From the IMG/VR virus record IMGVR_UViG_3300032236_001100, positions 1 through 64,000 of that record: a DNA stretch of 64,000 bases; one strand, 5' to 3'. The position numbers were made by a program, and so were the translations under genes. The notes beneath the pieces were generated by a model. It was not told where the DNA came from, made no database searches, and was given only the letters and a program-made list of their open reading frames with translations. Positions 2,461 to 35,023 of the stretch are shown here, one piece after another (position 1 is the first letter of the stretch; the number at the start of each line of letters is the position of its first letter). This stretch comes from a virus.

Positions 2461-2489
2461 TTGACAATAGTACGTACCGATATTACATT
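2461..2489 (+). promoter_or_regulatory. Sigma70-type early promoter P2
   Basis: TTGACA-17 bp-TACATT. Confidence 0.75.
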
Positions 2490-2543
2490 GTATAAGTCGA
2501 GTGAATGAACGCTCGACTTGACCCAACCCGAGAGGATAGAACG

Positions 2544-2846
2544 ATGGACTTTTTCCGACGATACGAGAACGAACCGGTTTCTACGCTCCTGGCCTTGCCC
2601 TGGAATACGGTCCAGATCGTCATTCCTAAGAACGATGGTAGCAAAATCTGCTACGGTGAAGAGCTTGCACCCGCTGATGCAACCAAAGAAGTCCTGGCTT
2701 ATTGGGTTGCCTATGCGAAAGAAAGAAACCTTGATATCGAGCTTTACTTCAACGCCTGTAAATGTCTTCTGTCAGACGGGCTGACGGTCAAGATCAACGA
2801 AGACCTGATCGTGACCCGTTGCGTAGAAGCGTGTCTGGGCGGTTAA
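2544..2846 (+). CDS. Hypothetical protein
   Basis: CGAGAGGA RBS at 2529-2536 places the start at ATG 2544. Confidence 0.75.
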   Translation: MDFFRRYENEPVSTLLALPWNTVQIVIPKNDGSKICYGEELAPADATKEVLAYWVAYAKERNLDIELYFNACKCLLSDGLTVKINEDLIVTRCVEACLGG

Positions 2847-2893: not shown

Positions 2894-2968
2894 GTAATTC
2901 TAATCAACGTGGTAGCAAGTTCTGACCGGCTTGCTATCACCTTATTCTCAACCGAGAGGAATATGCTT

Positions 2969-3811
2969 ATGTGTGTGATCATCGACCGTCCCGCTGGTGT
3001 AGTTGTTACCAAGTCTATGGTTGAAGCCGCGACTACCCGCAATAGTGATGGCTGGGGTATTGCCATCACCCGCAAAGATGGCGTTATTGAGGTCGTTCGC
3101 GGTTTCGGTAGCAAAAAAGCGTTCAAGGCCGTTAAGAACGCTGGTGAATGCCCGTTCGTTTTTCACGCTCGACTGGCAACACACGGTGTTATCAACGTCG
3201 ATAACTGTCACCCGTTCACGATTCTTGACGGCCAGTATGTGGTGATTCACAACGGCATCGTTGATGCTGTCCCAGAAGTCTGGACAGAGTACAGTGATAC
3301 CGCCCACCTTGCCTACGGCATCATTGAGCCTATGCTCAACATGCACCCCGAGTGGTTCGACGATGGAACACTTGCCAAGTTCGTTGATGCCCTGGCTGGC
3401 TACTCCAAGATCGTGATTATCCGCGCTTCTGACGGCAAGCACTGCTGGGTTAACCGTCACTTGGGTGAAGACTATGACGGCCTCTGGATTTCTAACCGCA
3501 CTTGCGTTCCGGTAGTCGCCACGGTCGCCAGGATTGTTGACAAAGTACCCTCTGGCAAGAAAGCGACTAAGGGAACCGCTAAGAAGTCCGTTTCCTCTTC
3601 GTCACTTTGGGGCGACTGGGACTTCATGACTGAAGCCGAAAACGATGATCGTTGGTCCCCTGAACCAGTCGGAGACTACACCACGGTCAACCAGCGCGGA
3701 CTCTGGCAGATGAACGATCTTGCATATTGCACATATCACGATATTGTCGATCTGTGCAAGAATGATCCCGAGGGTATGGCGTCACTGATTCACGACTATC
3801 TCGATAACTGA
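2969..3811 (+). CDS. Class II glutamine amidotransferase (Ntn-hydrolase)
   Basis: Starts M-C-V-I-I (N-terminal Cys); NSDGWG, FHARLATHG, NCHPF, HNGI and SDT motifs; RBS at 2953-2960. Confidence 0.9.
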   Translation: MCVIIDRPAGVVVTKSMVEAATTRNSDGWGIAITRKDGVIEVVRGFGSKKAFKAVKNAGECPFVFHARLATHGVINVDNCHPFTILDGQYVVIHNGIVDAVPEVWTEYSDTAHLAYGIIEPMLNMHPEWFDDGTLAKFVDALAGYSKIVIIRASDGKHCWVNRHLGEDYDGLWISNRTCVPVVATVARIVDKVPSGKKATKGTAKKSVSSSSLWGDWDFMTEAENDDRWSPEPVGDYTTVNQRGLWQMNDLAYCTYHDIVDLCKNDPEGMASLIHDYLDN

Positions 3812-5125: not shown

Positions 5126-5219
5126 CGCCCATACCGCACCCGCAACCACTTACCCCGCTTCGTGATTTTTTGAGTTTCTTTACACTGCTCTGACCGGCAT
5201 TACCCGAGAGGATTGACCG

Positions 5220-5936
5220 ATGATGAATCTGCCTAAGATCGAAGACTTGTCTGGCGACACGATTGATAGCAAGCCCGTTGAATTCGATTTCAGCACGGGC
5301 TACGGTGAAACGTGGGATATCGTCCAAGAATACCCGGAAGACTGGACCGCTGAGGATTGCAAGCGGTTCCTTGACGATAATGGCCGCGACTATGACAGTG
5401 AGCTGACCCGCTACTTCCACGACCTTGAAGCCCTCATGCCTGATGATGCTACTGAGGAACTTGAATCGTCCGACACGCCTGAAGGTCTTATCAAGGCCCT
5501 TGACGCCAGGCTGATCGACCATACTGACGAAGATAGCAAGCACTGCACCGAGCTTCGCTACCTGGCTTCAGAAGTGCTGTCTAACAGCGACTACAACTTC
5601 CCAGTCATGAACTATATCTACCCGCTGCCAAGCGGTGACGCCGATAGGATTAGGGGCAAAGTCAACAATCTTGTTAGTACGACCTTGATTCACCGCCTGG
5701 ATACCGATACTTACGGACTGGCCTTAACTGGCGGCGGGATGGACTTCTCAATCGAAATCTGCAAGTCGTTCATCGCCCTTGGCTATATGCCGCCAGTCCA
5801 CTTCTGTGACCTGCCCCGTATGTCCGGGTTCCCGTCAAGCCGTTTCGACCGCTTGGTGATTGAGGCGTGCAAGGAATCGTGCCGTATCGCTATCAAGCGT
5901 ATCGGCTTCACTATCTACCGCCTAGAATCGTTCTGA
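5220..5936 (+). CDS. Acidic hypothetical protein (LALTGGGMD motif)
   Basis: RBS at 5205-5212; 238-aa ORF. Confidence 0.8.
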   Translation: MMNLPKIEDLSGDTIDSKPVEFDFSTGYGETWDIVQEYPEDWTAEDCKRFLDDNGRDYDSELTRYFHDLEALMPDDATEELESSDTPEGLIKALDARLIDHTDEDSKHCTELRYLASEVLSNSDYNFPVMNYIYPLPSGDADRIRGKVNNLVSTTLIHRLDTDTYGLALTGGGMDFSIEICKSFIALGYMPPVHFCDLPRMSGFPSSRFDRLVIEACKESCRIAIKRIGFTIYRLESF

Positions 5937-5989
5937 CCTAACCCTCTTATGTATCACCCCCCAGCCATAGATTTTTGGGAGCCAATACG

Positions 5990-6262
5990 ATGGATGCCAG
6001 CAAGCTACTGAATTCGGCCACTGCCGCCGCTGATGGCACGTATGTTCTGTATGCACCTCGCGCTAATCGCGCGGTCCTCATGGTGGCCAAAAACAACCGA
6101 GTCGCTATGGTGGCCGTTGTCGATGAAAGTTCCTATTACGGTTGGGCCGTTACTCGCGTTACTGGTTCCGAAGCGGAGCTAGTAGCTTCGACGGTCTTCT
6201 GTCAGCCATCTGGCCAACCAAGCGGAGTCGATCTTGCCAAAGTTGACGTGTTCAAGTTCTGA
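5990..6262 (+). CDS. Hypothetical protein
   Basis: GGAG upstream of ATG 5990; fills the gap between two junction motifs. Confidence 0.65.
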   Translation: MDASKLLNSATAAADGTYVLYAPRANRAVLMVAKNNRVAMVAVVDESSYYGWAVTRVTGSEAELVASTVFCQPSGQPSGVDLAKVDVFKF

Positions 6263-6340
6263 GTTAATTTCGGCAAGCAAACTGATTCTAAACCCGGCGT
6301 TTCCGGTACTGACCCCCGGACACGATTTTTGAGACTGAGC

Positions 6341-6358
6341 TGTCTCCGCGCGGAGACA
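6341..6358. repeat. Perfect palindrome TGTCTCCGCGCGGAGACA (copy 1 of 5)
   Basis: Same 16-bp core at 19343, 33130, 40780 and 55686. Confidence 0.9.
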
Positions 6359-6380
6359 AACAACCGAGAGGATATTGATC

Positions 6381-6836
6381 ATGCCTATCACTCGCAACGG
6401 CTTAGAACTTCACTGTTACGCGCCAGGTGACGGTGCCCTATCTTTTAGCTGGGTTGACATTAGAGAGGGAAACGTAGTCCCTGGAAAGGTAACGCCATCA
6501 CTTGCGCGTAGATTCCTGAAAAGTCGTGACGGACTGGGACGCCGCGACTATCACGTTGTGACAGTCAACGGTGAAGTCAGACTTGCACCACCTGTTAGGC
6601 GTGTCTGTGACGACGTGGTTCGTGTTAAATGGCATATGTCAACGCTATGCAAAAATTACGCAGACGTTCGTATCGAAGTCACTGGTGGGCCTGGCCCAGT
6701 CACGTTCTACCAGCTTAAAGCATGGACTATTGACGAGGATGGAACCAAAGTCGATTTCAAGCATATCTCTAGTTTGATGGCCATCGTTTTCTTTCTGAAC
6801 CACCAGCAACTCTACAAGGAACTGGGCCTGGCATAA
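6381..6836 (+). CDS. Hypothetical protein flanked by an exact 19-bp direct repeat
   Basis: RBS at 6365-6372; ACCCCCGGACACGATTTTT at 6312-6330 and 6856-6874. Confidence 0.75.
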   Translation: MPITRNGLELHCYAPGDGALSFSWVDIREGNVVPGKVTPSLARRFLKSRDGLGRRDYHVVTVNGEVRLAPPVRRVCDDVVRVKWHMSTLCKNYADVRIEVTGGPGPVTFYQLKAWTIDEDGTKVDFKHISSLMAIVFFLNHQQLYKELGLA

Positions 6837-6927
6837 AGCTCTAGCTACGCGAAACACCCCCGGACACGATTTTTCGAGATTGACTAAGCCGCTGACCCGG
6901 CCATTCCCAAACGAGAGGACCACGATC

Positions 6928-7338
6928 ATGACAGACACGATTCTTGAAGCGGTACTTGATTCCTATATCGAGTGCGCATTATGGACTACCACCGACGAAT
7001 CAGACGAACGTGGCGGCAACCCGCTTGACGATAACTATGGGCCGTCTGATCTTTCCCCAGAAGCCCTGGAAGCGATGCGCAAGGATTGTGCCAGGTTCCT
7101 CAGAGACAATAAGGTGATCCTTGAGACTTTTGACGAACTTTACCCTAACTGGTTCACCAAGTACTCGACTGAAGAAATGATCGGCCACGACTTCTGGCTG
7201 ACCCGCAACGGTCACGGAGCTGGCTTCTGGGACGGCGGCTGGCCCGGTATTACCGGCGATATTCTCACCCGGTCGTGCAAGGCGTTTGGCGAGTGCAACC
7301 TGTACGTGGGTGACGATAGCAAGATTTATGTTTGCTAA
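6928..7338 (+). CDS. Conserved phage hypothetical protein (GHDFWLTRNGHGAGFWD motif)
   Basis: RBS at 6912-6919; motif recognised from phage hypothetical proteins. Confidence 0.8.
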   Translation: MTDTILEAVLDSYIECALWTTTDESDERGGNPLDDNYGPSDLSPEALEAMRKDCARFLRDNKVILETFDELYPNWFTKYSTEEMIGHDFWLTRNGHGAGFWDGGWPGITGDILTRSCKAFGECNLYVGDDSKIYVC

Positions 7339-7411
7339 TATCGGCAGCGACTCAATAACCCCACCGCAAGATTTTTTAATCCGGGTTCACACAATACGAA
7401 AGGATACGACG

Positions 7412-7714
7412 ATGGCAAGAGTTAAGAAAGTCAAGCCGCTGAAAATGCCGGTAGCACTCAAAAACGCATTGTACAATGCGTCCAAAAATTGCACTGGAAG
7501 CATTGCGAGTGGCTGCAAGCATAGCATCGAAAGAAACCAAGCATACGGTCGAGGCATCATCGTTGGTTGCGTTAGCGCGTTAATGGCAACCGGCATGACG
7601 TTTGATGAAGCCTGGCTGTTCATTGGCGGCAATATCCCTACCGACTATGACGAGGCATGCGTCCCCGATACATGGCCGCTTCGCCAGCTTTCAAAGTCTC
7701 AACCCTCTCAGTGA
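7412..7714 (+). CDS. Hypothetical protein
   Basis: CGAAAGGA RBS at 7397-7404. Confidence 0.7.
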   Translation: MARVKKVKPLKMPVALKNALYNASKNCTGSIASGCKHSIERNQAYGRGIIVGCVSALMATGMTFDEAWLFIGGNIPTDYDEACVPDTWPLRQLSKSQPSQ

Positions 7715-7774
7715 TTTTTGGGAATCACTGTCGCCCGTTCCTGAACCGTTCGCCAGCAATCAAGGAAAATCACA

Positions 7775-8197
7775 ATGGCCTTCAAGTCGCCACGACTCAA
7801 AGATCGTAACGCATCCATTCCAGAAATTCTCGACCGCCTCTTTTCCGGCAAGCGAGTCGATGAAGTCACACTCCGAAACGCTAAAGCCGAGTACGACAAG
7901 CTCAAATTGATCAAGTCGGCTAAGACCACCAAGCCACTGACCGGTGAGGAACGCCAGCGTAGGGCGCGAGGCCGTCCAAAAAACTCCGAGCCAATGGCAC
8001 GCTTCAACATGAAGCTAACGCAATCCGAGCTGACGGCCTGGAATGATGCGTGCGATATATTGAAATACGAGTCGCTTTCCGCTATGGTCCGGTTCGCGGT
8101 GAACGGCCTCGTGAATAACGTGATCGAAACCAAGCATAATGTAATGCCACTCAATCAAGAAAACACCGGCCAGCAACCAACCACCCCCGCCCCATGA
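7775..8197 (+). CDS. Ribbon-helix-helix DNA-binding protein with RGRP hook
   Basis: RGRP...RFNMKL...W......SLSAMVRFAV, a beta-strand/helix/helix pattern. Confidence 0.7.
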   Translation: MAFKSPRLKDRNASIPEILDRLFSGKRVDEVTLRNAKAEYDKLKLIKSAKTTKPLTGEERQRRARGRPKNSEPMARFNMKLTQSELTAWNDACDILKYESLSAMVRFAVNGLVNNVIETKHNVMPLNQENTGQQPTTPAP

Positions 8198-8478
8198 TTT
8201 CCCAGATTAAAATTCGAGGTCGAACCTACCGCTTGGAAAAGATCAGCAGTAGGTTTATCCTCTCTTACGGCGAACGGTCCCACCGGGTTGATCAAGACGA
8301 CAACCAATGGTGCGGTTGGATATGCGATTGCGAGGACTTCGCCTACCGCCGCGAGGGCAATAAAGCTGACCCCTGCAAGCATATCTTAGCTTTGCACAAT
8401 CAGGGCTTCACAGTTCTGTCAGACAGATATCTCTTTCAGCCAGCCGATTCACAAGACACGAAAGGGCCGATAAAATGA
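8194..8478 (+). CDS. SWIM zinc-finger protein
   Basis: CDC-x13-CKH motif. Confidence 0.75.
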   Translation: MISQIKIRGRTYRLEKISSRFILSYGERSHRVDQDDNQWCGWICDCEDFAYRREGNKADPCKHILALHNQGFTVLSDRYLFQPADSQDTKGPIK

Positions 8479-9179
8479 CCGTTGCATCCATCGCACCGGA
8501 ACCATTGCTGAAAACGACCACAACCGCCATGACGCCGATCACCCAAGTGATAGAGCGTGTCCTCATGCGAGACACGCCAACCGATCACGAAGTCGAATCT
8601 GCCTGCAAAGAATTCAAGGCAATCGCACCGTTCGCTGTCCCAGACGGCAAGCTGGAAAAGCTGATCTCTTCATTGTCCAACGAAGATGAGTTCCCCAGCG
8701 ACTCGTTGGCCTCGCAAGCCCTACGCGAGTACGAGCAAGCCGTGATCCAGCGATACCTCGTAACGACCGGCAAGTCGTTCAAGCCGCCCCGCAAGGCCAA
8801 AGAAGCCGACCATAAGCCCAAACGGCCACGAGGCCGTCCCAGGCTTGACAAAGATATGAAAAATCTGCACTTTCGAGTCGAGACAAAACGCCTCGAAGCC
8901 TGGAAAGAAGTCAGTCGCAAGCTCGGTTTCAATAGCGTTTCCGCGATGGTTCGTCACGCTATGAACGGCTTAGTCGAATCTGGTCTGGTGATCTCAGAAG
9001 ACGAGCTTCACGAGGAACGTCAGCACCATGAAGACGTTATGACAGGCGCGTCTGTCAGGATCACCATAGGCGAATTAAAGTCATGGGAAGATTACTGTCA
9101 ACAATACGGCAACCGAATAGTTGCGGCTATCATCAGGATTGCCGCCGAACGCCTTACTCGGCCATTCGGAGATATGTAA
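8475..9179 (+). CDS. Tandem ribbon-helix-helix protein, paralogue of 7775-8197
   Basis: RGRP...LHFRV...W......SVSAMVRHAMNGLV plus a second RHH-like unit at the C-terminus. Confidence 0.7.
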   Translation: MTVASIAPEPLLKTTTTAMTPITQVIERVLMRDTPTDHEVESACKEFKAIAPFAVPDGKLEKLISSLSNEDEFPSDSLASQALREYEQAVIQRYLVTTGKSFKPPRKAKEADHKPKRPRGRPRLDKDMKNLHFRVETKRLEAWKEVSRKLGFNSVSAMVRHAMNGLVESGLVISEDELHEERQHHEDVMTGASVRITIGELKSWEDYCQQYGNRIVAAIIRIAAERLTRPFGDM

Positions 9180-9223
9180 AATCCAGAGAAAAAATGCAAT
9201 CAGAAAATAATTCCGGTTGCCAA

Positions 9224-9252
9224 TTGATTTTGTGTGCTACGTTTCGTATATT
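9224..9252 (+). promoter_or_regulatory. Sigma70-type promoter P5
   Basis: TTGATT-17 bp-TATATT. Confidence 0.55.
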
Positions 9253-9316
9253 AGATCTTGTCGAGAGCAAACACTGACCTGAACGCCTTCGACTCTAAAC
9301 CCGAGAGGAACATGAG

Positions 9317-10051
9317 ATGCAGAAATATGTGCCCTACGTCCGTGTGAGCAGCAAACGCCAGGGTGACAGCGGCCTGGGCCTGGAAGCTCAGGTCGAGGCC
9401 GTTAAGAAGTACGCTGAATCCAAGTCTGGTGAGATTGTCCGTGACCCGTTTGTCGAGGTCGAGACAGGCACCAAAGATCGTGTCGTGCTTCGTACTGCCC
9501 TGGCTTATGCACGTCGAACCAAGTCTACACTTGTGGTCGCCAAGCTCGACCGTATCGCCCGTGATATGAAGCTGTTCTGTGAGATCCGCGACTCTGGCAC
9601 CAACGTGGTCTTTCTTGACCTGCCAGACGTGCCGCCAGGCCCCGTTGGTCAGATCATGCTCACGATGCTTGCTGCATTCGCTGAGTTTGAAGCTAAGGTG
9701 ATTCAGGAGCGAACCAGAGCTGCGCTCGGAGTCCTCAAGAAACGTGGTGTTAAGCTCGGTGCCGCCCGTGAGGGTGCGCCTCGTCTCACTGACTCTGATC
9801 GTGCCGCTGGTCGCAAGGCCGCATCTGAGGCCATCTCTAATAAGGCTGTCAAGCGCAACGCTGACATTCTGCCGGTTGTCCTCGGTCTGCGTGAGGACGG
9901 CATGCCACTGAGTGAGATCGGTGAGTTCCTGGCTGAAAACTACGGTTCCCTCACTGCAAGCGGCCAGCCATTCGACGCTAGCCGTGTAGCCAAGCTGGTG
10001 CGAATGGCTAAGAAGGCGGGCGTCAAGCCAGCCATGCCGGTGCTTGCCTAA
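9317..10051 (+). CDS. Serine recombinase (resolvase/invertase family)
   Basis: YVRVS catalytic motif, LVVAKLDRIARD, AEFE..I.ERT..AL, GVKLG and a C-terminal HTH. Confidence 0.93.
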   Translation: MQKYVPYVRVSSKRQGDSGLGLEAQVEAVKKYAESKSGEIVRDPFVEVETGTKDRVVLRTALAYARRTKSTLVVAKLDRIARDMKLFCEIRDSGTNVVFLDLPDVPPGPVGQIMLTMLAAFAEFEAKVIQERTRAALGVLKKRGVKLGAAREGAPRLTDSDRAAGRKAASEAISNKAVKRNADILPVVLGLREDGMPLSEIGEFLAENYGSLTASGQPFDASRVAKLVRMAKKAGVKPAMPVLA

Positions 10052-10157
10052 TACGGAATGCAAGCCGCCTCAAATTATGTGGCGGCTCACTTTTAACCCC
10101 GCTCAAGATTTTTTGAATCGCCCTGCCCTGACCGGCAGCAACCGAGAGGATAATATC

Positions 10158-10583
10158 ATGACTCTGAAAGAATGGTCCGAGCTATCGCAGATTCACGCTA
10201 CGTCACCGAACGAACGTGGCAACGTATCTTTGACGATTAGCCCTACTCACTTTCACCATCGGTCGCTGTATCACCTGGATGACTACTACGTCGATTTCAT
10301 GAACGGGCCAGTTGTATGGATGAAACCCAAACTAAAAGCCGAGATCACTGTGTGGGCACCGCTTGATCACGCCACAATGCAAACGCCTCTGATCGGTCGT
10401 TGGGAAATCATGGTTGCTGGCCCATGCGATGCCGAGGCCGTAGCCAGAACGCTCATGCGAGATAAAGGTGGACATTCTGCATACTATGTCATGCCGGATC
10501 ACTGGAACCAAAACATCCGATCCAACTGGCTAACAAGCAACGGCTGGCTTTCTGGCCTTCGCGCCATACCACCCACCCAGTGA
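10158..10583 (+). CDS. Hypothetical protein
   Basis: RBS at 10143-10150. Confidence 0.75.
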   Translation: MTLKEWSELSQIHATSPNERGNVSLTISPTHFHHRSLYHLDDYYVDFMNGPVVWMKPKLKAEITVWAPLDHATMQTPLIGRWEIMVAGPCDAEAVARTLMRDKGGHSAYYVMPDHWNQNIRSNWLTSNGWLSGLRAIPPTQ

Positions 10584-10612
10584 TTTTCCCAACCCACAAC
10601 GAGGCCCAACCC

Positions 10613-11056
10613 ATGATTGCTCAGACCCGAATCCTGCCCGACTTCAACGCAATACGATCCATAGCCGAGGAGATCGGCTCAGACCTCGCTCACGAGATTC
10701 TGGAGCGTGACCTGTACGTTTCCTGGCCGGGACTCGACCAGGCCAACAGCGAGCCTCTGACGGCCCTGGGGCTCAAGCCCACCGATCCTGAGTGGTTCGA
10801 GGCCGAGAGGCTTGCCGCCAGGATGTTCACGGCTGGCCTGCTGATCTTGGATATCCAGGCTGAACTAGACAGGCTGGGTTGGAGCAGGACCACCGGCAAC
10901 CCCGATGGTCTGGCGGTTGTGCCACTCAGTCACGGCAAGGTGCAGGTTCTTGGCCTGCAAGACCAGGCGACACAAGACGCCAGGATCTTGCTCTCCAGGC
11001 TCAAGGCCGTCCGTACCGGCGTGCCCTACTCAATCACGTTCATCACCGGACTCTAA
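10613..11056 (+). CDS. Hypothetical two-domain protein (GLKP..W domain + ELDRLGW domain)
   Basis: Shares segments with the next two genes and with 33168-33668. Confidence 0.75.
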   Translation: MIAQTRILPDFNAIRSIAEEIGSDLAHEILERDLYVSWPGLDQANSEPLTALGLKPTDPEWFEAERLAARMFTAGLLILDIQAELDRLGWSRTTGNPDGLAVVPLSHGKVQVLGLQDQATQDARILLSRLKAVRTGVPYSITFITGL

Positions 11057-11110
11057 CAAGACCCCCCCCGACGTAATTTTTTGAAGTCGATTTACCAAGG
11101 AGATTTGACA

Positions 11111-11881
11111 ATGGCCAGCAGCAAGATGATCAAAGCAATCGAAGCGGAACTTGAGCGGCTTGACTGGAACGGGTCCGAGACCAACGTGTCCGGGTTCGTT
11201 ATCACCGACTACGAAGAAATGGTAGGCACATTGCCACCAAACTTCGTCGTGCTGTACGACGATCACATCCGGTTCGTTGATGATGCTGACAAGATCCTGA
11301 ACGCACTCAAGGCAGCATCGCCCGACGACGAATATGGGACCGGCCTGGACGATATCCAGCAGGATTCGGACTACCTAGCCGCTCGTCGCCAGGAACTCGT
11401 GCAGATCCTGGGGGTTATCACAACGAAGGACCATGCCGGTGTTCACTTCACCACGAACTACACCAGAGACGTACTGGAGAGCCTGGAGTGGGTTGGATGG
11501 ATCAAGATTCATAAGCCAGTCCACGAGGCCACTGGCCTGGAGTACAGCGAGGAGAACTGGTCCCTGGAAGTCACGCCCGAAGGCCAGAAGGTCGTGGACG
11601 ATGAGTACCAGGAACCCAAAGAAGAGGACGAGCGTATCTCGCTTTGCATCGACAACGGCCCTGGCGGTTACGTTGTGTCGAATCCCGACAGCATTCCGCG
11701 CCAGATCATTCACGTCATGTCACCCGATGGGCCTATGATCACGGGAAGTACCGACAGCCACTCGGTCGTGGCCGAATGTTGGGAAGCTATTAACGGACTC
11801 ACGGGCTGGAAGAGCGAAGACGAAGTCACGGTCGATCATGATCGCCAGACGATCTTCGTGTCCGGTCGCAAGCTGTCCTGA
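11111..11881 (+). CDS. Acidic hypothetical protein with N-terminal ELxRLxW domain
   Basis: AGGAG RBS; paralogous N-terminus. Confidence 0.8.
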   Translation: MASSKMIKAIEAELERLDWNGSETNVSGFVITDYEEMVGTLPPNFVVLYDDHIRFVDDADKILNALKAASPDDEYGTGLDDIQQDSDYLAARRQELVQILGVITTKDHAGVHFTTNYTRDVLESLEWVGWIKIHKPVHEATGLEYSEENWSLEVTPEGQKVVDDEYQEPKEEDERISLCIDNGPGGYVVSNPDSIPRQIIHVMSPDGPMITGSTDSHSVVAECWEAINGLTGWKSEDEVTVDHDRQTIFVSGRKLS

Positions 11882-11965
11882 GCTAACACGGGAGCCTGGT
11901 CTGAACAGGCTCCATACCCCCCCCTTCGGGATTTTTTGGGATCAAAACAGCACGGAGAATTTACG

Positions 11966-13904: not shown

Positions 13905-13992
13905 GCGCATAAAAGTGCCCGGCAGGTCTGACCACCTGCCGGGCGGCACAACCCCAGGCTACGAGCCTGAAACCGAGAGGAGAGATGTGCAG

Positions 13993-25754: not shown

Positions 25755-27454
25755 TTGGATTTGAACTCCCTGAACTTGGCGAACCTGTCATTGGTTGCAT
25801 GCCTTGCCTCTTCCCTGCTTAGACTCAACGCGCGTTCCTCACTCCATCCCTGACCCATGAGGAATTTCACCTGGCTATAGCTGGACCTCTTGCGGAAGTC
25901 CCTGTCGGCCCAGAACTCCACAGCCTTCAAAGCCTGGTCGGGCGTCAGGCTGCGTGTGTCATGGATGCCGTAGCTCTTGAGAACATTCTTGATGTTCTCA
26001 CCCACTTCATTATGGGAATAATTGTGGACAGGCTGCTGAATGGGCGAGGCTAGGGCAACGCCCAACGGGTCCAGCTCACGCCGACGATACGATACGGCAC
26101 GCTCCCTGGCGGCAATCTGAAGCCGCATGACCGTGTCGGCCTTCTTCTTTTCTCTGGCTTCCCTGGCACGTTCACGCCGCTCTTCGTCTTCCTTCTCACG
26201 CTCACGCTGTCTCTTCGCCATTTCCAGAATGGTTAGCGGATCAAAGTCCTGCCCCTTCATGCCTCTGGCGATCTCACGACCAATCTGGCACAGGCGAGGA
26301 TCGGGCTCGTCCTCAAAGAACAGATCCAAGGTGGATACTGGTCCTTCGTCGTCGCACTCCCAGGCGAAGCCGATGACCCACCCCACGGTTTTCCCGGTCT
26401 CCGGTGAAATGCGTGTGATCCGTCCAATCTGTTGCATGGCAAGGCCGTGCGACTTGGTTGGCCTACCCATGATCGCGCAGTCGCAGCTGGGGAAGTCTAC
26501 GCCCACGTTCAACAACTGGCACGAGATAATCACGTCCAGTTCGTCCTCGTCGAACTGCCGGGTGATTCCGTCTCTGTCCGGGTTCTCGCCATGCACGGCC
26601 CTGGCTCGTAGGCCCATCGCACTGTATGCCGACTCAAACGCATAAGCCGTTTTGACATCGGGCGTGAAGTGGATCGCCTTGCGAACGCCCAGGCGTTTCA
26701 TTTCCATCCTGGCACCGTTGGCCATCTTGTCCACGGAACCAGAGATCCGGTCTTCCAGTTCCTGCTGGCTGTAATCCTTGCCGTACTTCGTGATTGTCTT
26801 CTTGAGGCCACGCAGGTCGATACCCACGTTGCACTCCACCATCCGCACCGGCACGAGGTGGCCGTTACTGATCGCGCCCGGTCTCCCATCCGGGTAGTCC
26901 TTGAGCGGATAGTGGTAGGCAATACTCTCGAAGATGTCAGGCACCAGCGGCTTGCCATCCGCTCGATACGGGGTAGCCGACAAGCCCACCCAGTATTTGA
27001 TGCCACTGAAGTAGCTCATGAGCATCTTGATCGTCGAGCCCTGAGCCGACTGGCATTCGTCAATAATGCCATAGACAAACTCGTCTGGCCTCCAGAGCGA
27101 GAGCCTCTTGGGTGAGCCTAGTGTCTGCCTGGTGGCGATCACGCAGTCGTAGCCGCCCATCAGGGCCATCGAGTCCTTGGCTCGCCTGTCGCCCATCTCC
27201 ACGGCTGTGGCGATGCCCCAGCGGTGGAACTTATCCTCGGTCTGCTCGACAAGGCGTCTCATGTCTGCAATAAACAAGCACTTGCCATTGTCCCTGATCT
27301 TATCGACCAACTTTGCAGCAGTCACCGTCTTCCCGGTGCCAGTCGCTGCGTGAATGATGGTCTTGCTTCGGCCTTCCTGCCATTCCTTGAGAACGGCTTC
27401 AATCATCTCGGCTTGGACATCATCTCTTGTGGGGGTGGATCGCATGGCAATCAA
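25751..27454 (-). CDS. Superfamily 2 (DExx) helicase
   Basis: ATGTGKT, DECQ, SAT, GVDFP, QQIGRITR. Confidence 0.93.
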   Translation of the reverse strand: MIAMRSTPTRDDVQAEMIEAVLKEWQEGRSKTIIHAATGTGKTVTAAKLVDKIRDNGKCLFIADMRRLVEQTEDKFHRWGIATAVEMGDRRAKDSMALMGGYDCVIATRQTLGSPKRLSLWRPDEFVYGIIDECQSAQGSTIKMLMSYFSGIKYWVGLSATPYRADGKPLVPDIFESIAYHYPLKDYPDGRPGAISNGHLVPVRMVECNVGIDLRGLKKTITKYGKDYSQQELEDRISGSVDKMANGARMEMKRLGVRKAIHFTPDVKTAYAFESAYSAMGLRARAVHGENPDRDGITRQFDEDELDVIISCQLLNVGVDFPSCDCAIMGRPTKSHGLAMQQIGRITRISPETGKTVGWVIGFAWECDDEGPVSTLDLFFEDEPDPRLCQIGREIARGMKGQDFDPLTILEMAKRQREREKEDEERRERAREAREKKKADTVMRLQIAARERAVSYRRRELDPLGVALASPIQQPVHNYSHNEVGENIKNVLKSYGIHDTRSLTPDQALKAVEFWADRDFRKRSSYSQVKFLMGQGWSEERALSLSREEARHATNDRFAKFREFKSK

Positions 27455-30785: not shown

Positions 30786-30832
30786 GATTTGGCATCGTGT
30801 CAAGCTGACCCACAAACTGAGAGGAGAGTCCG

Positions 30833-31303
30833 ATGGCATTCGGTGAAGAAAACGACTATATGACGGCTTATCGCAACCGAATCCGCGAGGTTGCTCGGGC
30901 CTATGTCGAAAACAAAAAAATGAAACAGGTAGACTTTGCGGATGTCACCGGCCTGGGCAAGGAACGGATCTCCGCGATCCTGGGCGACCGGCCAACCTTC
31001 ACGATCTCGATCTACGTGCTTGAGCATCTGGCCAAGGGCATGGGGACGACCATTGACTGGCTGATCAGTGGACGCTCAATCTACCCGCCACCGAAGACAT
31101 CAGATAAGGGTGGCGACTTGACTGAACAAGAAGCGGAACTGATCCTTTTGGCCAAAGCTGTCTCCAGTAACGATCCCGAACCGTCACGGTTAATGACGGC
31201 TCGGAATCGAATCCTGGGATTGACAAGTCCGGTTCTCGGCCAGGTGGCTCTTCAGGAACCTGAGAAGACACGCAACGGAGGAACTGGGCGAAAATCGTCC
31301 TGA
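30833..31303 (+). CDS. XRE-family (CI-like) repressor
   Basis: KQVDFADVTGLGKERISAIL...LAKGMGTTIDWL. Confidence 0.85.
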   Translation: MAFGEENDYMTAYRNRIREVARAYVENKKMKQVDFADVTGLGKERISAILGDRPTFTISIYVLEHLAKGMGTTIDWLISGRSIYPPPKTSDKGGDLTEQEAELILLAKAVSSNDPEPSRLMTARNRILGLTSPVLGQVALQEPEKTRNGGTGRKSS

Positions 31304-31519: not shown

Positions 31520-31857
31520 AAGGTAAGGTTGAGCTTTCAGATTACCGATGTCGTTCTTAGTGTGCAATGGTATAGATGCGCGATTTATTTTTCTCACCGA
31601 TAGCAAAAATGGTAAGGGGTGGTAAGGCTAAAATTGGCACAAAGTTGACGTTAACATTAATAGCAACTTACCACGTTAATACTGCCAATAAATAGGTGTA
31701 CGCAAGAACAATGAAATCCACAATCACTGGTAAATAAATGACTTAGGGATAATTGTGCTTTTAGAAACTACGATGCGTAGAAAGTGTGTTTGACTCTATA
31801 AAATAGATGTTTATGATAATTCTAAAAGTGGTAGGTACCATTTTTAGGAGAACATCA
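31520..31857. other. Candidate attP region
   Basis: AT-rich intergenic DNA before the integrase with TGGTAAGG direct repeats (31610, 31620), inverted CTTACCA (31667) and variants (31521, 31728, 31829). Confidence 0.45.
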
Positions 31858-32949
31858 ATGCCTCGGCTTACTAAAGGGAAAGTTCCCCTCTTACGGCAGC
31901 ATTCGAGTGGCCAGTGGACCGTCAGGCTGTCAGGTTTCGACCATTACCTTGGGCACGACAAGGAAGCCGCTCAGACGAAGTACGGCGAACTGATCGGCCA
32001 GTGGGAGTCACGGGGACGCAAGCCAGTCTTTGAGACCAAGACTGACGGCAAGACCGTGTCCGAGGTCGCTGACCTCTACCTGGAGCATTGCCGGTCCTAT
32101 TACGTGAAGCGTGGCAAGGTCACGTCTCAGGTCAAGAACATTGAGCAGGCCCTGGCGGGAATGGTCGAACTGTACGGCAGTGCCCAGATCGACAGCTTTG
32201 GGCCACGCGACATGATTAACGTCATTAACCACTGGATCGAATCAGGAATCGTGCGCAGGTCAGTTAATGACAGGCATCGGATCATTGCCCAGTTCTTCCG
32301 CTGGTGCGGAGTCTGGGGCTACTTGCCGGTGGACGCATGGATGAGAGTCAAGGTCGTCGAGAGCCAGAAGGAGGGCCGCTCTAAGGCCCCCGACCTGCCG
32401 GAGCGCGAGCCGCCTCGGTTGGAGCATGTCCGTGCCGTCCAAGAGATCGTCTGCGACCGGGTCTCGGACATGATCGAACTCCAGATGATCACCGGCATGC
32501 GGTCCTGTGAGATCTGTGCCATGCGACCGCTGGACATCGACATGTCGGGTGAAATCTGGGTCTACACCGTCAGACCGGAATTCAACAAGACGACACACAA
32601 AAAAAAGAAACGGGTGGTGATGCTTGGCTCCAAATGCCAGGAGATACTGAAAAAGTACATCGCCATCCGCAAGCCCGACCAGGAGGTGTTTCGGACCCAG
32701 TACAATGGACCTTACACTCCACCGAATTATCGGGGCGTGATCCGGTTCTCGTGCATCAAGCTCGGGATACCCATCTGGTTTCCCCACCTGCTGCGTCATC
32801 ATGCCGCCACGGAGATTCGGGCCAAGTACGGCCTTGACGCTGCCAGGGCCATCCTGGGCCACTCAGACGTGTTCACCACCATGAACTATGCCAAGCCCAG
32901 CCCTGACGCTGAACTGACCAAGAGGGTGGTGAAAGACCGCGAAGGTTGA
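31858..32949 (+). CDS. int: Tyrosine integrase
   Basis: TGMR, K, HLLRH, LGH and Y catalytic set; N-terminal H.SGQ..V.L.G.DHYLG as in planctomycete integrases; AGGAG RBS. Confidence 0.95.
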   Translation: MPRLTKGKVPLLRQHSSGQWTVRLSGFDHYLGHDKEAAQTKYGELIGQWESRGRKPVFETKTDGKTVSEVADLYLEHCRSYYVKRGKVTSQVKNIEQALAGMVELYGSAQIDSFGPRDMINVINHWIESGIVRRSVNDRHRIIAQFFRWCGVWGYLPVDAWMRVKVVESQKEGRSKAPDLPEREPPRLEHVRAVQEIVCDRVSDMIELQMITGMRSCEICAMRPLDIDMSGEIWVYTVRPEFNKTTHKKKKRVVMLGSKCQEILKKYIAIRKPDQEVFRTQYNGPYTPPNYRGVIRFSCIKLGIPIWFPHLLRHHAATEIRAKYGLDAARAILGHSDVFTTMNYAKPSPDAELTKRVVKDREG

Positions 32950-32974
32950 CGGTTCAGCCAGATGCTTCTATCAT
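32946..32974 (+). promoter_or_regulatory. Sigma70-type promoter of the candidate sRNA
   Basis: TTGACG-17 bp-TATCAT. Confidence 0.65.
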
Positions 32975-32980
32975 TGATGT

Positions 32981-33104
32981 GAAGCGATTGCTCTTGATCG
33001 GAAGAGTCAATCGCACCGAAGCATGGCTCTCGCGTGCGTCGTCCTCTTGTGGGTTTGGGTCAATAAGAGCCATCTGGTGAAAACCGGGTGGCTCTTATTG
33101 TTTG
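32981..33104 (+). ncRNA. Candidate structured small RNA antisense to the conserved gene leaders
   Basis: Own promoter, two hairpins and a terminal hairpin at 33061-33100; linker 33042-33063 is complementary to TGACC...GAGAGGA leaders. Confidence 0.5.
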
Positions 33105-33167
33105 ATGGCCAGGCAATGCTAGAATCAATGTCTCCGCGCGGAGACTGATCCATACTGGAGCCAAACC

Positions 33168-33668
33168 ATGTACTGCCGACCTTGGATTGACTTGAAGCAC
33201 AAAAAGAATGGCTACTTCGTGATCCGCGAGGACAACAACGAAGGCGGCAAGAACGAGGTCATTGCCAAGTACGGACTGGACGAGTACCAGGCTGCACGCG
33301 AACGGGCAATTCATGAGACCGAGGAACACAAGAGCCAGTTGACAGAGACTCGCCGTGATGGCGAAGGCGAGGTCATCTATACCAGCTCGCACGTCAACCA
33401 GATGCTTCAGATTGGCAAAGATATCGCAGCCGATTTCTGTCAGCTGTTACTGGACGAGAATCGGCTGCCGGTGAAGAAGTGGATTCCTGTGTTCGACGAG
33501 GCTTGGAAGGGCATTCCTGAATGCTACAGGCCACACTTGCATCTGCTCGGCCTGGAGGAAGGGACTCAGGACTGGCATCACATCGAGTACGGTGGTGCCG
33601 CTCATGCGATCACGATCTTGAGTCCGATCATGCGTAACCGGCGACCACAGGATTATCGCGAGCAGTGA
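33168..33668 (+). CDS. Hypothetical protein with C-terminal GL..GT..W domain
   Basis: GGAG RBS; similarity to segments of the 10613 and 11966 genes. Confidence 0.75.
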   Translation: MYCRPWIDLKHKKNGYFVIREDNNEGGKNEVIAKYGLDEYQAARERAIHETEEHKSQLTETRRDGEGEVIYTSSHVNQMLQIGKDIAADFCQLLLDENRLPVKKWIPVFDEAWKGIPECYRPHLHLLGLEEGTQDWHHIEYGGAAHAITILSPIMRNRRPQDYREQ

Positions 33669-34523: not shown

Positions 34524-34736
34524 TTATAGCCAGGGGCCATTATGATGCACCACAGGATCTCGCCCGTAATGGTCTTCCAAGCCTGGTTCATAGTCGTAAT
34601 GCGTGGGCTTGCCCATCTCACTGGCACTACGAGCAAGCAACCAGCCAAGGCCGATCAAGCCCAAGCCAGAGACTAACGCAAGCAAAGCTGTTAACGCCGA
34701 GATCTGAGTATCGCTCAATCCAATGTAGCCTGGCAT
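34524..34736 (-). CDS. Small membrane protein
   Basis: One TM helix; AAGGAG RBS. Confidence 0.6.
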   Translation of the reverse strand: MPGYIGLSDTQISALTALLALVSGLGLIGLGWLLARSASEMGKPTHYDYEPGLEDHYGRDPVVHHNGPWL

Positions 34737-35023
34737 GCTGTCTCCTTGTTAATGGCTTCGCTCAACTTGGACACTACGCTTGCTGGTAGTCTGGGGCCTT
34801 CAAATTTGATGATGTGCTGCACCGCTTCTTGAAGCTGATTGAGTTCAGCGCGGAGTCGCGTAACCTCTTCATGCCGGTCAATGGCGGCATCGGCCACTTT
34901 GGAGCGACCTGCGTCGATAGAAACAATGCCTTGCAGCAAGCTAAGAAAGCTCTCGCGGTCTAAAGAAAAGTTCGTGCCTTTTGGTGTTTCTTGAACTGTT
35001 GCAATCGTGTCTTGGAGATTCAC
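34715..35023 (-). CDS. Coiled-coil hypothetical protein
   Basis: AAGGAG RBS. Confidence 0.6.
   Translation of the reverse strand: MNLQDTIATVQETPKGTNFSLDRESFLSLLQGIVSIDAGRSKVADAAIDRHEEVTRLRAELNQLQEAVQHIIKFEGPRLPASVVSKLSEAINKETACQATLD

Follow-up and report, generated by a model that had tools for sequence, protein, structure and literature searches.

The sequence directly downstream of the integrase gene of an uncultured temperate phage is tentatively interpreted here as a plus-strand gene (approximately positions 32980-33104) for a ~120-nt non-coding RNA that has its own promoter and would block Shine-Dalgarno (SD) regions by pairing with them, a reading to which we give nearly even weight. 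The analyzed window comprises 64,000 nucleotides, positions 1 to 64,000 of a viral record of 84.7 kb that is 84% coding. A plus-strand small-RNA unit, proposed in an earlier note on this DNA, is the best reading of the sequence, and the predicted architecture recurs in a relative of the phage (G001). A promoter and a Rho-independent terminator bracket a non-coding stretch in the range of 50-300 nt; this architecture, its conservation, the structural covariation and the complementarity statistics are read directly from the genomes. The candidate is probably an uncatalogued phage base-pairing small RNA, and the prediction is well-formed and based on two genomes. Weak hints point to a host in the Planctomycetota/Verrucomicrobiota group, and the use of sigma-70 promoters and SD sequences is deduced from the phage itself.

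The tyrosine integrase gene int (31858..32949, plus strand) was assigned by Pfam PF00589 (E=1.3e-18) and PHROG 1 (E=2.6e-41). Its start, earlier placed at 31807, is most likely the SD-preceded ATG at 31858 (AGGAGA-N6-ATG), which gives a product of 363 aa; a homologue of the same length, 96% identical, is encoded on a 92-kb contig. The int stop codon TGA (32947-32949) lies inside the -35 hexamer of the predicted RNA promoter, and the int transcript probably ends at a terminator shared with the candidate RNA.

The sigma-70-like promoter TTGACG-17-TATCAT (32946..32974, plus strand) matches the consensus at 10 of 12 positions. Rechecking of the coordinates placed its hexamers at 32946-32951 and 32969-32974 with a spacer of 17 nt, as had been claimed. 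Twelve promoter-like matches of this quality occur in the 84.7-kb record, 7 of them intergenic despite its 84% coding content. The counterpart in the relative, TTGACC-17-TATGAT, has an identical offset to the int stop codon there; the hexamers of the two phages agree at 10 of 12 positions and the spacers at 5 of 17, the spacer length staying at 17 nt. Matches of equal quality occur in the relative at ~1.2e-4 per strand position, and two further promoters within the 5-kb region are likewise kept between the phages. The operator-like motifs present at the early promoters of the phage are missing from the RNA promoter, which would therefore probably be active in the lysogen.

The predicted RNA (32980..33104, plus strand, ~120-125 nt), with its start set 6-8 nt past the -10 hexamer, begins with UGAAG in both phages. 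The fold energy of this stretch is -58.1 kcal/mol, compared with -35.6 +/- 3.6 for shuffled sequences (z = -6.3). Two hairpins, a linker and a terminator, all on the plus strand, were located where the earlier note had put them. Hairpin 1 (32984..33014) is formed by a 12-bp stem with one bulge and a GAUCGG loop, and hairpin 2 (33021..33037), present in the centroid structure, by a 5-bp stem with the loop GCUCUCG, the complement of CGAGAG; the latter hairpin is weak and has no recognizable conservation in the relative. The linker TCCTCTTGTGGGTTTGGGTCAA (33042-33063 in the coordinates of the earlier note) overlaps a single-stranded region (33038..33060) that is unpaired in the centroid fold and carries the CU-rich, anti-SD-like UCCUCUUG (33042-33049). 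A second box, GGGUCAA (33057-33063), begins in the linker and enters the terminator stem by 3 nt; its terminal CAA forms the first stem pairs, which leaves GGGU as the only part predicted to be unpaired. The intrinsic terminator (33061..33106) consists of an 18-bp stem (33061-33078/33083-33100) with a GAAA loop followed by TTTG. Its U-tail is interrupted (UUAUUGUUUG). Among the variants listed for runs X2 and X3 (~95% identical), 13 common substitutions fall in 32835-33488 outside 32905-33162 and none within the latter interval, while a 3-nt deletion at 33037 in X3 leaves the CU-rich motif intact; this distribution lends weak support to a conserved RNA stretch.

The comparison is one of two genomes, G001 being the only reachable relative, and the covariation comes from this one pair. 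The relative is syntenic, with an integrase 61% identical to that of the studied phage and a GC content of 46% vs 54%, and it displays the same layout: a promoter over the int stop codon, a 5' hairpin, the sequence CUCUUGU and a terminator. Its RNA counterpart is 104 nt long (fold z = -8.1). The 5' hairpin there has 8 bp and a sequence unrelated to hairpin 1 and yet occupies the same place, 2-3 nt past the putative start in both phages. The CU-rich core CUCUUGU is common to the two RNAs, the chance of sharing a 7-mer at a similar position of a ~45-nt linker being ~3-9% by our own estimate; in the relative, the CU motif lies partly within a weak hairpin. Covariation was observed in the terminator of this one pair, where 18 of 18 base pairs are kept, with six two-sided changes, two one-sided changes and none broken. 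Conservation of the terminator is expected anyway from its role as the int terminator. No conserved open reading frame (ORF) was found at the RNA locus on either strand in the two phages. The plus-strand 41-aa ORF (33023-33148) was rejected as coding because it crosses the terminator, lacks an SD sequence and has no counterpart in the relative, and the minus-strand ORFs of 39 aa and 5 codons were rejected because they are not conserved.

Searches for known families and further relatives gave negative results. No Rfam family, C4 included, was found in the window at the gathering score, and a permissive scan of 32850-33250 yielded chance-level unrelated families only (best E = 0.034). Searches of viral contigs with the integrase, the downstream protein, the helicase and the portal-like protein re-found only G001; alignment of the integrase against metagenome and genome contigs yielded relatives of 33-39% identity, none with a similar downstream RNA; and blastn of 6 kb against a phage collection produced no match. 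A promoter-pattern scan of viral contigs returned at least 119 matches, and the TC(C/T)CTTG motif follows none of those listed.

The linker is complementary to a family of leaders dispersed over the phage genome. The leader pattern TGACC-N(3-16)-GAGAGGA has 8 copies, compared with 0.14 expected (0/100 shuffles reach 8), and all of them are located just before a start codon on its own strand. The leader motif CGAGAGGA has 17 copies vs 2 expected and lies 5-9 nt before ATG in the 8 strict leaders. In the six leaders that the earlier note lists, 5-10 nt separate TGACC from (C/T)GAGAGGA, and in the linker copy 8 nt; the values given in that note, 7-12 and 10 nt, hold if the gap is counted to AGAGGA. 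With a relaxed pattern, the 84.7-kb record as a whole yields two additional minus-strand copies, one opposite the linker (33043-33062) and a looser match (34864-34880) that appears inside the ORF 34715-35023. The sole genome match of the linker 22-mer is its reverse complement. The set of repeated regulatory elements found in this phage lineage is unusual.

The resemblance of the reverse complement of the linker to the leaders at 2519 and 30806, pointed out in the earlier note, corresponds to complementarity far beyond chance in this phage. In a ranking against shuffled controls, the mean of the ten best start regions is -30.2 vs -25.6 +/- 1.0, a value reached by 0/100 shuffled linkers, and the top pairings are those with the CUGACC/CGAGAGGA leaders. 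The best predicted target is the 5' UTR of gene 2544-2846 (2490..2546, plus strand), in which a 5' hairpin is followed by UUGACCCAACCCGAGAGGA and then ATG; the gene encodes a 100-aa protein of unknown function, and no orthologue was detected in the relative. This leader, at 2519, matches the reverse complement of the linker at 19 of 22 positions, the extra match to UUGACCCAACC amounting to 11 of 12 positions (chance ~6e-5, our own estimate), and the predicted duplex of -32.4 kcal/mol belongs to the top 0.15% of all genome windows. The leader of an HTH repressor-like gene (30806..30835, plus strand, -28.7 kcal/mol) is a predicted secondary target, where ACCCACAA would pair with UUGUGGGU and GAGGA with UCCUC; the gene behind it is assigned by HTH_19/HTH_3 and repressor PHROGs, and this target is not conserved in the relative. 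The two-box complementarity is present in the studied phage (UCCUCUUG with CGAGAGGA, GGGUCA with UGACCC), with box 2 partly in the terminator stem. It does not extend to the relative, whose RNA has no GGUCA box despite the presence there of CUGACC-loop leader hairpins (7 vs 1.2 in controls). The CUGACC hairpin at 13928 is kept in both phages. Short stretches of the RNA region complementary to int sequences, 9 bp around its start codon and others in its promoter and codons, were discarded as being at chance level and absent in the relative.

The same locus might in fact be nothing but the int 3' UTR with its terminator, the hairpins stabilizing or retro-regulating the int message, the hexamers being unused, and the antisense copy being a by-product of recombination between repeated leader cassettes, with no role in trans. 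A terminator is needed by int regardless, and the leaders, as a dispersed repeat, offer possible starting points for gene conversion; the likeness to leader 2519 also spans the spacer (UUGACCCAA-CCC), a sign of copying rather than of selection on the two boxes alone, and specific target complementarity is absent in the relative. Without promoter function, however, conserved hexamers with a fixed 17-nt spacing, an identical offset and a diverged spacer are hard to explain, and in both phages the int stop codon and the terminator remain separated by 90-110 nt of structured sequence, with a 5' hairpin right after the putative start. We consider this explanation rather unlikely.

The seed core CUCUUGU is shared by both phages, and target complementarity is significant in the studied phage alone. 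The best targets of the RNA of the relative among its own start regions are no better than those of shuffled linkers (6/100 and 55/100 shuffles), and there the leader at the syntenic position reaches no better than the top 12% among genome windows. When the RNAs were swapped between the phages, the cognate combination was not favored in the relative, and the conserved-target tests between the two genomes gave nothing significant. One gene pair (5220 in the studied phage, 5638 in the relative) pairs in both phages, with 11 bp in the relative, and is unremarkable in the energy ranking. The 5' codons of the helicase gene (CCCACAAGAG, 27424, minus strand, 10 bp; ACAAGAGA in the relative) were rejected as a conserved target, being explained by the conserved PTRDD coding sequence; 10-mer complementarities of this kind are expected approximately 6 times by chance.

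A real RNA might be directed at host messages or at SD sites in general, as the conservation of the CU-rich core alone between the two RNAs would suggest, the leader match in the studied phage being incidental and due to a shared ribosome-binding motif and one recombination event. The linker of the relative moves the average pairing energy of the start regions as a whole (0/100 shuffles reach it) and not that of the top targets, as a generic anti-SD sequence would, and prophage small RNAs such as DicF target host genes (PMC12197685). Such a generic role leaves the additional match to UUGACCCAACC of leader 2519 unexpected by chance, and leader 2519 would pair with the RNA, if it is made, whatever the origin of the match. 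We judge a purely host-directed or generic role to be clearly unlikely.

The minus strand could be the functional one, the element being either a leader in decay whose minus-strand gene has been lost or the leader of an untranslated transcript from that strand. The copy at 33043-33062 is a recognizable member of the leader family, as its likeness to leader 2519 demonstrates, and it directly follows a hairpin, as leader 2519 does. It is, however, the only close copy without a downstream gene: it leads only to ATG-CTT-CGG-TGC-GAT-TGA, in agreement with the 5-codon ORF reported in the earlier note, and a distance of 17 nt separates the SD-like AAGAGGA from this ATG. At this place the relative lacks a TGACC box and its 12-codon ORF is not homologous, the U-rich terminator tail is on the plus strand only in both phages, and a relic would have lost the core over the divergence marked by 61% integrase identity. 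That the element is what remains of a leader whose minus-strand gene was deleted, a finding that the earlier note had named among those that would overturn its proposal, is improbable, because the CU-rich core is kept where the promoter spacer is already randomized and the relative also has no minus-strand gene there; a functional minus strand as a whole is very unlikely. Least probable is a protein-binding region at the DNA level (attP arms, a recombination directionality site or a regulator site beside int), since, although the locus adjoins int and contains inverted repeats, neither repeated arm sites nor a tRNA 3' end was found in it, a tRNA/tmRNA scan detected no tRNA, tmRNA or tRNA fragment, the AT-rich, attP-like arm-type repeats lie upstream of int in both phages (31530-31850 with GGTAAGG in the studied phage, GTAAAT(T)ACCAC in the relative), and the stems covary as helices without a fixed sequence, which suggests selection at the RNA level.

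For the plus-strand small RNA, we infer transcription, the direction of its effect and its targets as follows. The RNA would be transcribed from its own sigma-70-type promoter overlapping the int stop codon up to the long intrinsic terminator that would also end the int message, the layout of a small RNA embedded in a 3' UTR and equipped with its own promoter. The 5' hairpin would be protective, and an exposed pyrimidine-rich stretch (UCCUCUUG and the CUCUCG loop) would pair with purine-rich SD regions and thereby block initiation of translation. The linker appears to have become a near-exact antisense counterpart of a single leader, the one preceding gene 2544-2846, and would therefore also pair, though less well, with approximately ten sibling early-gene leaders, which combine CGAGAGGA with a CUGACC hairpin loop. 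The likely effect would be to dampen leaky translation of early genes in lysogeny or on superinfection.

The earlier note went further and proposed that one RNA controls a dozen or more genes, including the repressor gene. Linker complementarity beyond chance in the studied phage speaks for this proposal, and the absence of specific pairing and of the GGUCA box in the relative speaks against it; such control could apply to this phage only. In its broadest form, a constitutive RNA would act as a genome-wide translational brake that contacts the CUGACC loop of approximately ten dispersed early leaders, zips onto the adjacent CGAGAGGA ribosome-binding site, and tunes unrelated accessory genes as well as the repressor gene via one antisense copy of their shared leader. 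We regard this extended model as improbable. The CUGACC loop fits the YUNR U-turn motif, which we take to be the one used for fast antisense recognition.

The arrangement predicted for the candidate resembles that of MicL and DapZ, small RNAs embedded in 3' UTRs that have an internal promoter and share a terminator with the mRNA; here too, the promoter is situated where the upstream coding sequence ends, and the mRNA would use the same terminator. In phage lambda, the sib/tI region is a structured RNA downstream of int that includes its terminator; attP separates sib from int, and the action of sib, which is in cis and depends on RNase III, is on read-through transcripts. Unlike in lambda, the attP-like repeats are upstream of int in the studied phage, and a conserved promoter precedes the structures. 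To our knowledge, phage base-pairing RNAs are few, and most of those known control a single gene (C4, sar, OOP). C4 pairs through two boxes, and by analogy so does the P4 CI RNA. C4 of the P1/P7 immI region is a phage RNA in the range of ~77-120 nt that acts in trans in immunity or lysogeny, with short boxes complementary to the surroundings of a ribosome-binding site in a phage gene (PMC12197685), features that the candidate would share. Unlike C4, which is processed from the leader of its target operon, the candidate would be transcribed from a separate promoter where int ends; it also differs in its predicted targeting of approximately ten dispersed leaders rather than one operon, in the absence of the second box in the relative, and in the lack of an Rfam match. 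The anti-SD RNA DicF of the Qin prophage (PMC12197685) likewise has a pyrimidine-rich exposed seed for ribosome-binding regions; no sequence or model similarity to DicF, MicL or DapZ was found.

The leaders themselves recall the SAS/ESAS motifs of cluster K mycobacteriophages, described as a conserved SD-containing motif 3-7 nt before the starts of many non-structural genes, often after an inverted repeat, for which a phage RNA or protein binder was left open (PMC3203893); their function was still given as unknown in 2025 (PMC12699233). The likeness is one of position and not of sequence (a CUGACC hairpin with CGAGAGGA vs GGGATAGGAGCCC), the consensus GGGATAGGAGCCC with up to 2 mismatches 3-7 nt before starts was not found in the leaders, and the phage and host groups are unrelated. 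In the accessible parts of the two papers, no antisense RNA is proposed for a reversed copy of the motif (PMC3203893, PMC12699233).

If the RNA is made, it would represent a family not yet catalogued, from a lineage of uncultured phages that possibly infects Planctomycetota or Verrucomicrobiota. If, in addition, the multi-leader model is true, many independently acquired accessory genes would be placed under one post-transcriptional control via a common leader, and this would provide a testable hypothesis for the SAS/ESAS motifs of mycobacteriophages.

The phage record G000 (IMG/VR; 84,755 bp, GC 54%, estimated completeness 58%, with the window as its first 64 kb) has minus-strand early genes, including one for a Rad52/Erf-like annealing protein, ahead of the RNA locus. 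Beyond a divergent promoter region and the gene of an HTH repressor-like protein (30833-31303) come a non-coding, AT-rich stretch with repeated GGTAAGG-type motifs (31530-31850) and the tyrosine integrase gene (int). The integrase start is most likely 31858, not 31807 (AGGAGA-N6-ATG, 363 aa), and the resulting length is that of a 96%-identical homologue (363 aa). Directly after int lie a 160-nt stretch with the candidate RNA, a 16-bp perfect palindrome, a 166-aa ORF with no assigned function (33168-33668) and minus-strand genes. This ORF is moron-like, since it is missing in G001, the sole relative compared; immediately past its end (33668), contigs of phage variants from two other sequencing runs (X2 and X3) part from G000, marking a mosaic boundary. 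The AT-rich region upstream of int, whose motifs are repeated in both orientations (GGTAAGG in G000; GTAAAT(T)ACCAC in G001, stretch L009, 9780-10030), probably represents attP and its arm-type integrase sites. The conserved int promoter TTGACT-16-TATGAT/TACAAT sits within this putative attP region.

The promoter, hairpins, linker and terminator described in the earlier note were all recovered in the 160-nt stretch, at the coordinates given there. The RNA (approximately 32980-33104) has a predicted fold energy of -58.1 kcal/mol, compared with -35.6 +/- 3.6 in shuffles, and is predicted to form a 5' hairpin, a weak second hairpin (loop GCUCUCG), a mostly unpaired linker (33042-33063) and an 18-bp terminator, whose stem has at its base the CAA of box 2 (GGGUCAA, 33057-33063). 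The promoter TTGACG-17-TATCAT (32946) is a 10/12 match, with the integrase stop codon within its -35 hexamer. Few promoter-like matches reach this level (12 in G000, 21 in G001, counting both strands); 7 of the 12 in G000 are intergenic, though 84% of the sequence is coding, and at least three (2461, 31790, and 32946) have a G001 counterpart at a homologous place. Rfam contains no family matching the candidate.

The comparison covers one relative, the IMG/VR record G001 (87.4 kb, GC 46%), which is mostly collinear with G000 (integrase 61% and helicase 71% identical) and has the same architecture directly 3' of the integrase: a promoter TTGACC-17-TATGAT with the stop codon again within the -35 hexamer, an RNA 5' sequence UGAAG, an 8-bp hairpin unrelated in sequence to that of G000, a linker containing UCUCUUGU, and a terminator with a 19-bp stem. 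The two promoters share 10 of the 12 hexamer positions and 5 of the 17 spacer positions, which argues for conservation of the promoter itself, not of the sequence at large. All 18 terminator pairs are kept, with covariation at six (double, compensatory changes) and single changes at two, and in each phage a U-rich tail follows on the plus strand alone. No ORF is conserved on either strand of the stretch. The X2 and X3 variants (~95% identical) extend from int across the RNA into the following gene; among the substitutions listed, none shared by both falls in 32905-33162 and at least 13 shared ones lie elsewhere within 32835-33488, which is weak evidence. In one of the variants, slippage has removed 3 nt at 33037, and the CU motif is untouched. 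The stretch is unlikely to be attP, since both phages have their AT-rich arm-type repeats on the upstream side of int; nor does the locus contain a tRNA fragment. Taken together, the promoter, terminator, ORF, attP and variant evidence is best read as a small-RNA unit predicted to be transcribed from the plus strand, a reading that we consider fairly probable.

The leader pattern TGACC-N(3-16)-GAGAGGA is genuine and far commoner than expected (8 copies, 0.14 expected), each copy directly preceding a start codon. By itself, CGAGAGGA occurs 17 times (about 2 expected) and is the dominant ribosome-binding context of the genome, at 21 candidate starts. A relaxed pattern adds two matches in the whole 84,755-bp record, both on the minus strand: a looser one that seems to fall within ORF 34715-35023 (34864-34880), and one at 33043-33062, the sole close copy without a gene downstream. 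The latter is the reverse complement of the linker and, as claimed, closely resembles leader 2519, the 5' UTR of gene 2544-2846 (19/22 positions identical).

Pairing of the linker with predicted translation start regions was compared with that of 100 dinucleotide-shuffled linkers. The G000 linker far exceeds chance, its ten best targets averaging -30.2 kcal/mol (shuffles, -25.6 +/- 1.0; matched by 0/100), and its best matches are CUGACC/CGAGAGGA leaders (6928, 2098, 2544, 3893, 35589, 4430, and 30833). The predicted duplex with leader 2519 (9 + 3 + 6 bp) spans the Shine-Dalgarno sequence and ranks in the top 0.15% of genome windows, so this leader, at minimum, would be bound if the RNA is made. 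Helicase codons 8-11 (PTRD; 27422-27433, minus strand) read CCCACAAGAG, a perfect 10-bp complement of the linker, and the same codons in G001 read ACAAGAGA, complementary to the RNA of that phage; this is probably a coincidence of coding constraint.

Averaged over all start regions, the pairing energy is shifted by the G001 linker to a level that 0/100 shuffles reach, as expected from any CU-rich anti-Shine-Dalgarno sequence. Its ten best and single best targets are unexceptional (reached by 6/100 and 55/100 shuffles), the leader syntenic to 2519 ranks only in the top 12% of genome windows, and swapping the RNAs between phages revealed no cognate preference in G001. The comparison with relatives proposed in the earlier note gives no support to a two-box system kept in both phages, the G001 RNA being without a GGUCA box. 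Hairpins with an invariant CUGACC loop are enriched in both phages (13 in G000, control mean 2.0; 7 in G001, control mean 1.2), and one with a 12-bp stem is conserved at orthologous places; these small hairpins, whose stems covary, are ancestral to both phages. They occur in early-gene leaders at 2065, 2922, 3848, 5190, 6892, 10128, 13181, 13928, and 35622 (minus) in the window and at 7773, 13684, and 14106 on the reverse complement of G001 (G001rc). The loop may be a protein-binding or antisense-recognition element, and in G001 the hairpins do not depend on the RNA box. Box 2 of G000 may derive from a leader by copying or conversion; alternatively, it may have been gained specifically in the lineage where such leaders multiplied and gene 2544 exists. 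The match, which runs through the spacer (UUGACCCAA-CCC), favours copying as the origin, whether or not the copy is now in use. The proposal that one RNA beside the integrase controls a dozen or more dispersed leaders is partly supported: the leader complementarity stands in G000, and the comparison lends no support to such control as a conserved feature; a master regulator of this kind may exist in G000, but is improbable.

Other repeated elements occur in the two phages. The 16-bp palindrome GTCTCCGCGCGGAGAC has eight copies in G000 (window 6342, 19343, 33130, 40780, and 55686; rest of the record 76892, 80431, and 80764), and in G001 (several copies) the core shows a similar excess despite an 8-point GC difference. 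Several copies lie in 5' UTRs, 14-25 nt ahead of the start (6342, 33130, and 55686, the last on the minus strand), as does a G001 copy before the orthologous tail gene, and others are immediately past stop codons; the palindrome could serve as an operator or, in RNA, form a 6-bp hairpin with a GCGC loop. A junction motif, CCCC-N-GA(A)CGATTTTTTGA, recurs ahead of many early genes in both phages (window 5160-11940; G001rc 5590-11770, e.g., CCCCCCTGAACGATTTTTTGAG) and may be a phage-specific promoter, a terminator or a recombination cassette boundary. Early promoters TTGACA-17-TACATT carry, in either orientation and in both phages, the conserved spacer motif TCGGTA-N-GTAC (window 2461-2489 and 4353; G001rc 2524, 7712, and 1380), a likely repressor operator. 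In G001, short repeats of the ACAAG(A/G) type (GATACAAGAGA, GACACAAGGA, and related sequences) are densely arrayed over non-coding positions 2950-3080 (stretch L013), with several sites complementary to UCUCUUGU of the G001 RNA; the array could represent iterons or an origin.

Small RNAs located in 3' UTRs and having internal promoters exist, and the candidate resembles them in architecture. In function, DicF, P22 sar, and the C4 RNA of P1/P7 come nearest (reviewed in PMC12197685). The leaders have their nearest parallel in the SAS/ESAS of cluster K mycobacteriophages, described as a conserved Shine-Dalgarno-containing motif before many non-structural genes, often with an inverted repeat upstream, whose binder, RNA or protein, the authors left open (PMC3203893); a 2025 account still gives their function as unknown (PMC12699233).

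The architecture with its conservation, the covariation and the pairing statistics are shown; for transcription, sign of effect and target set, we infer the following mechanism. An RNA of ~120 nt would start from the promoter at the int end and stop at a terminator common to the RNA and int; since no operator-like motif overlaps its promoter, the lysogen probably expresses it. The exposed UCCUCUUG and the CUCUCG loop would pair with Shine-Dalgarno regions and repress translation, most strongly that of gene 2544-2846 (function not assigned) in G000, with sibling leaders and the repressor leader hit more weakly. The candidate is probably a new phage small RNA, uncatalogued but of a kind already known.
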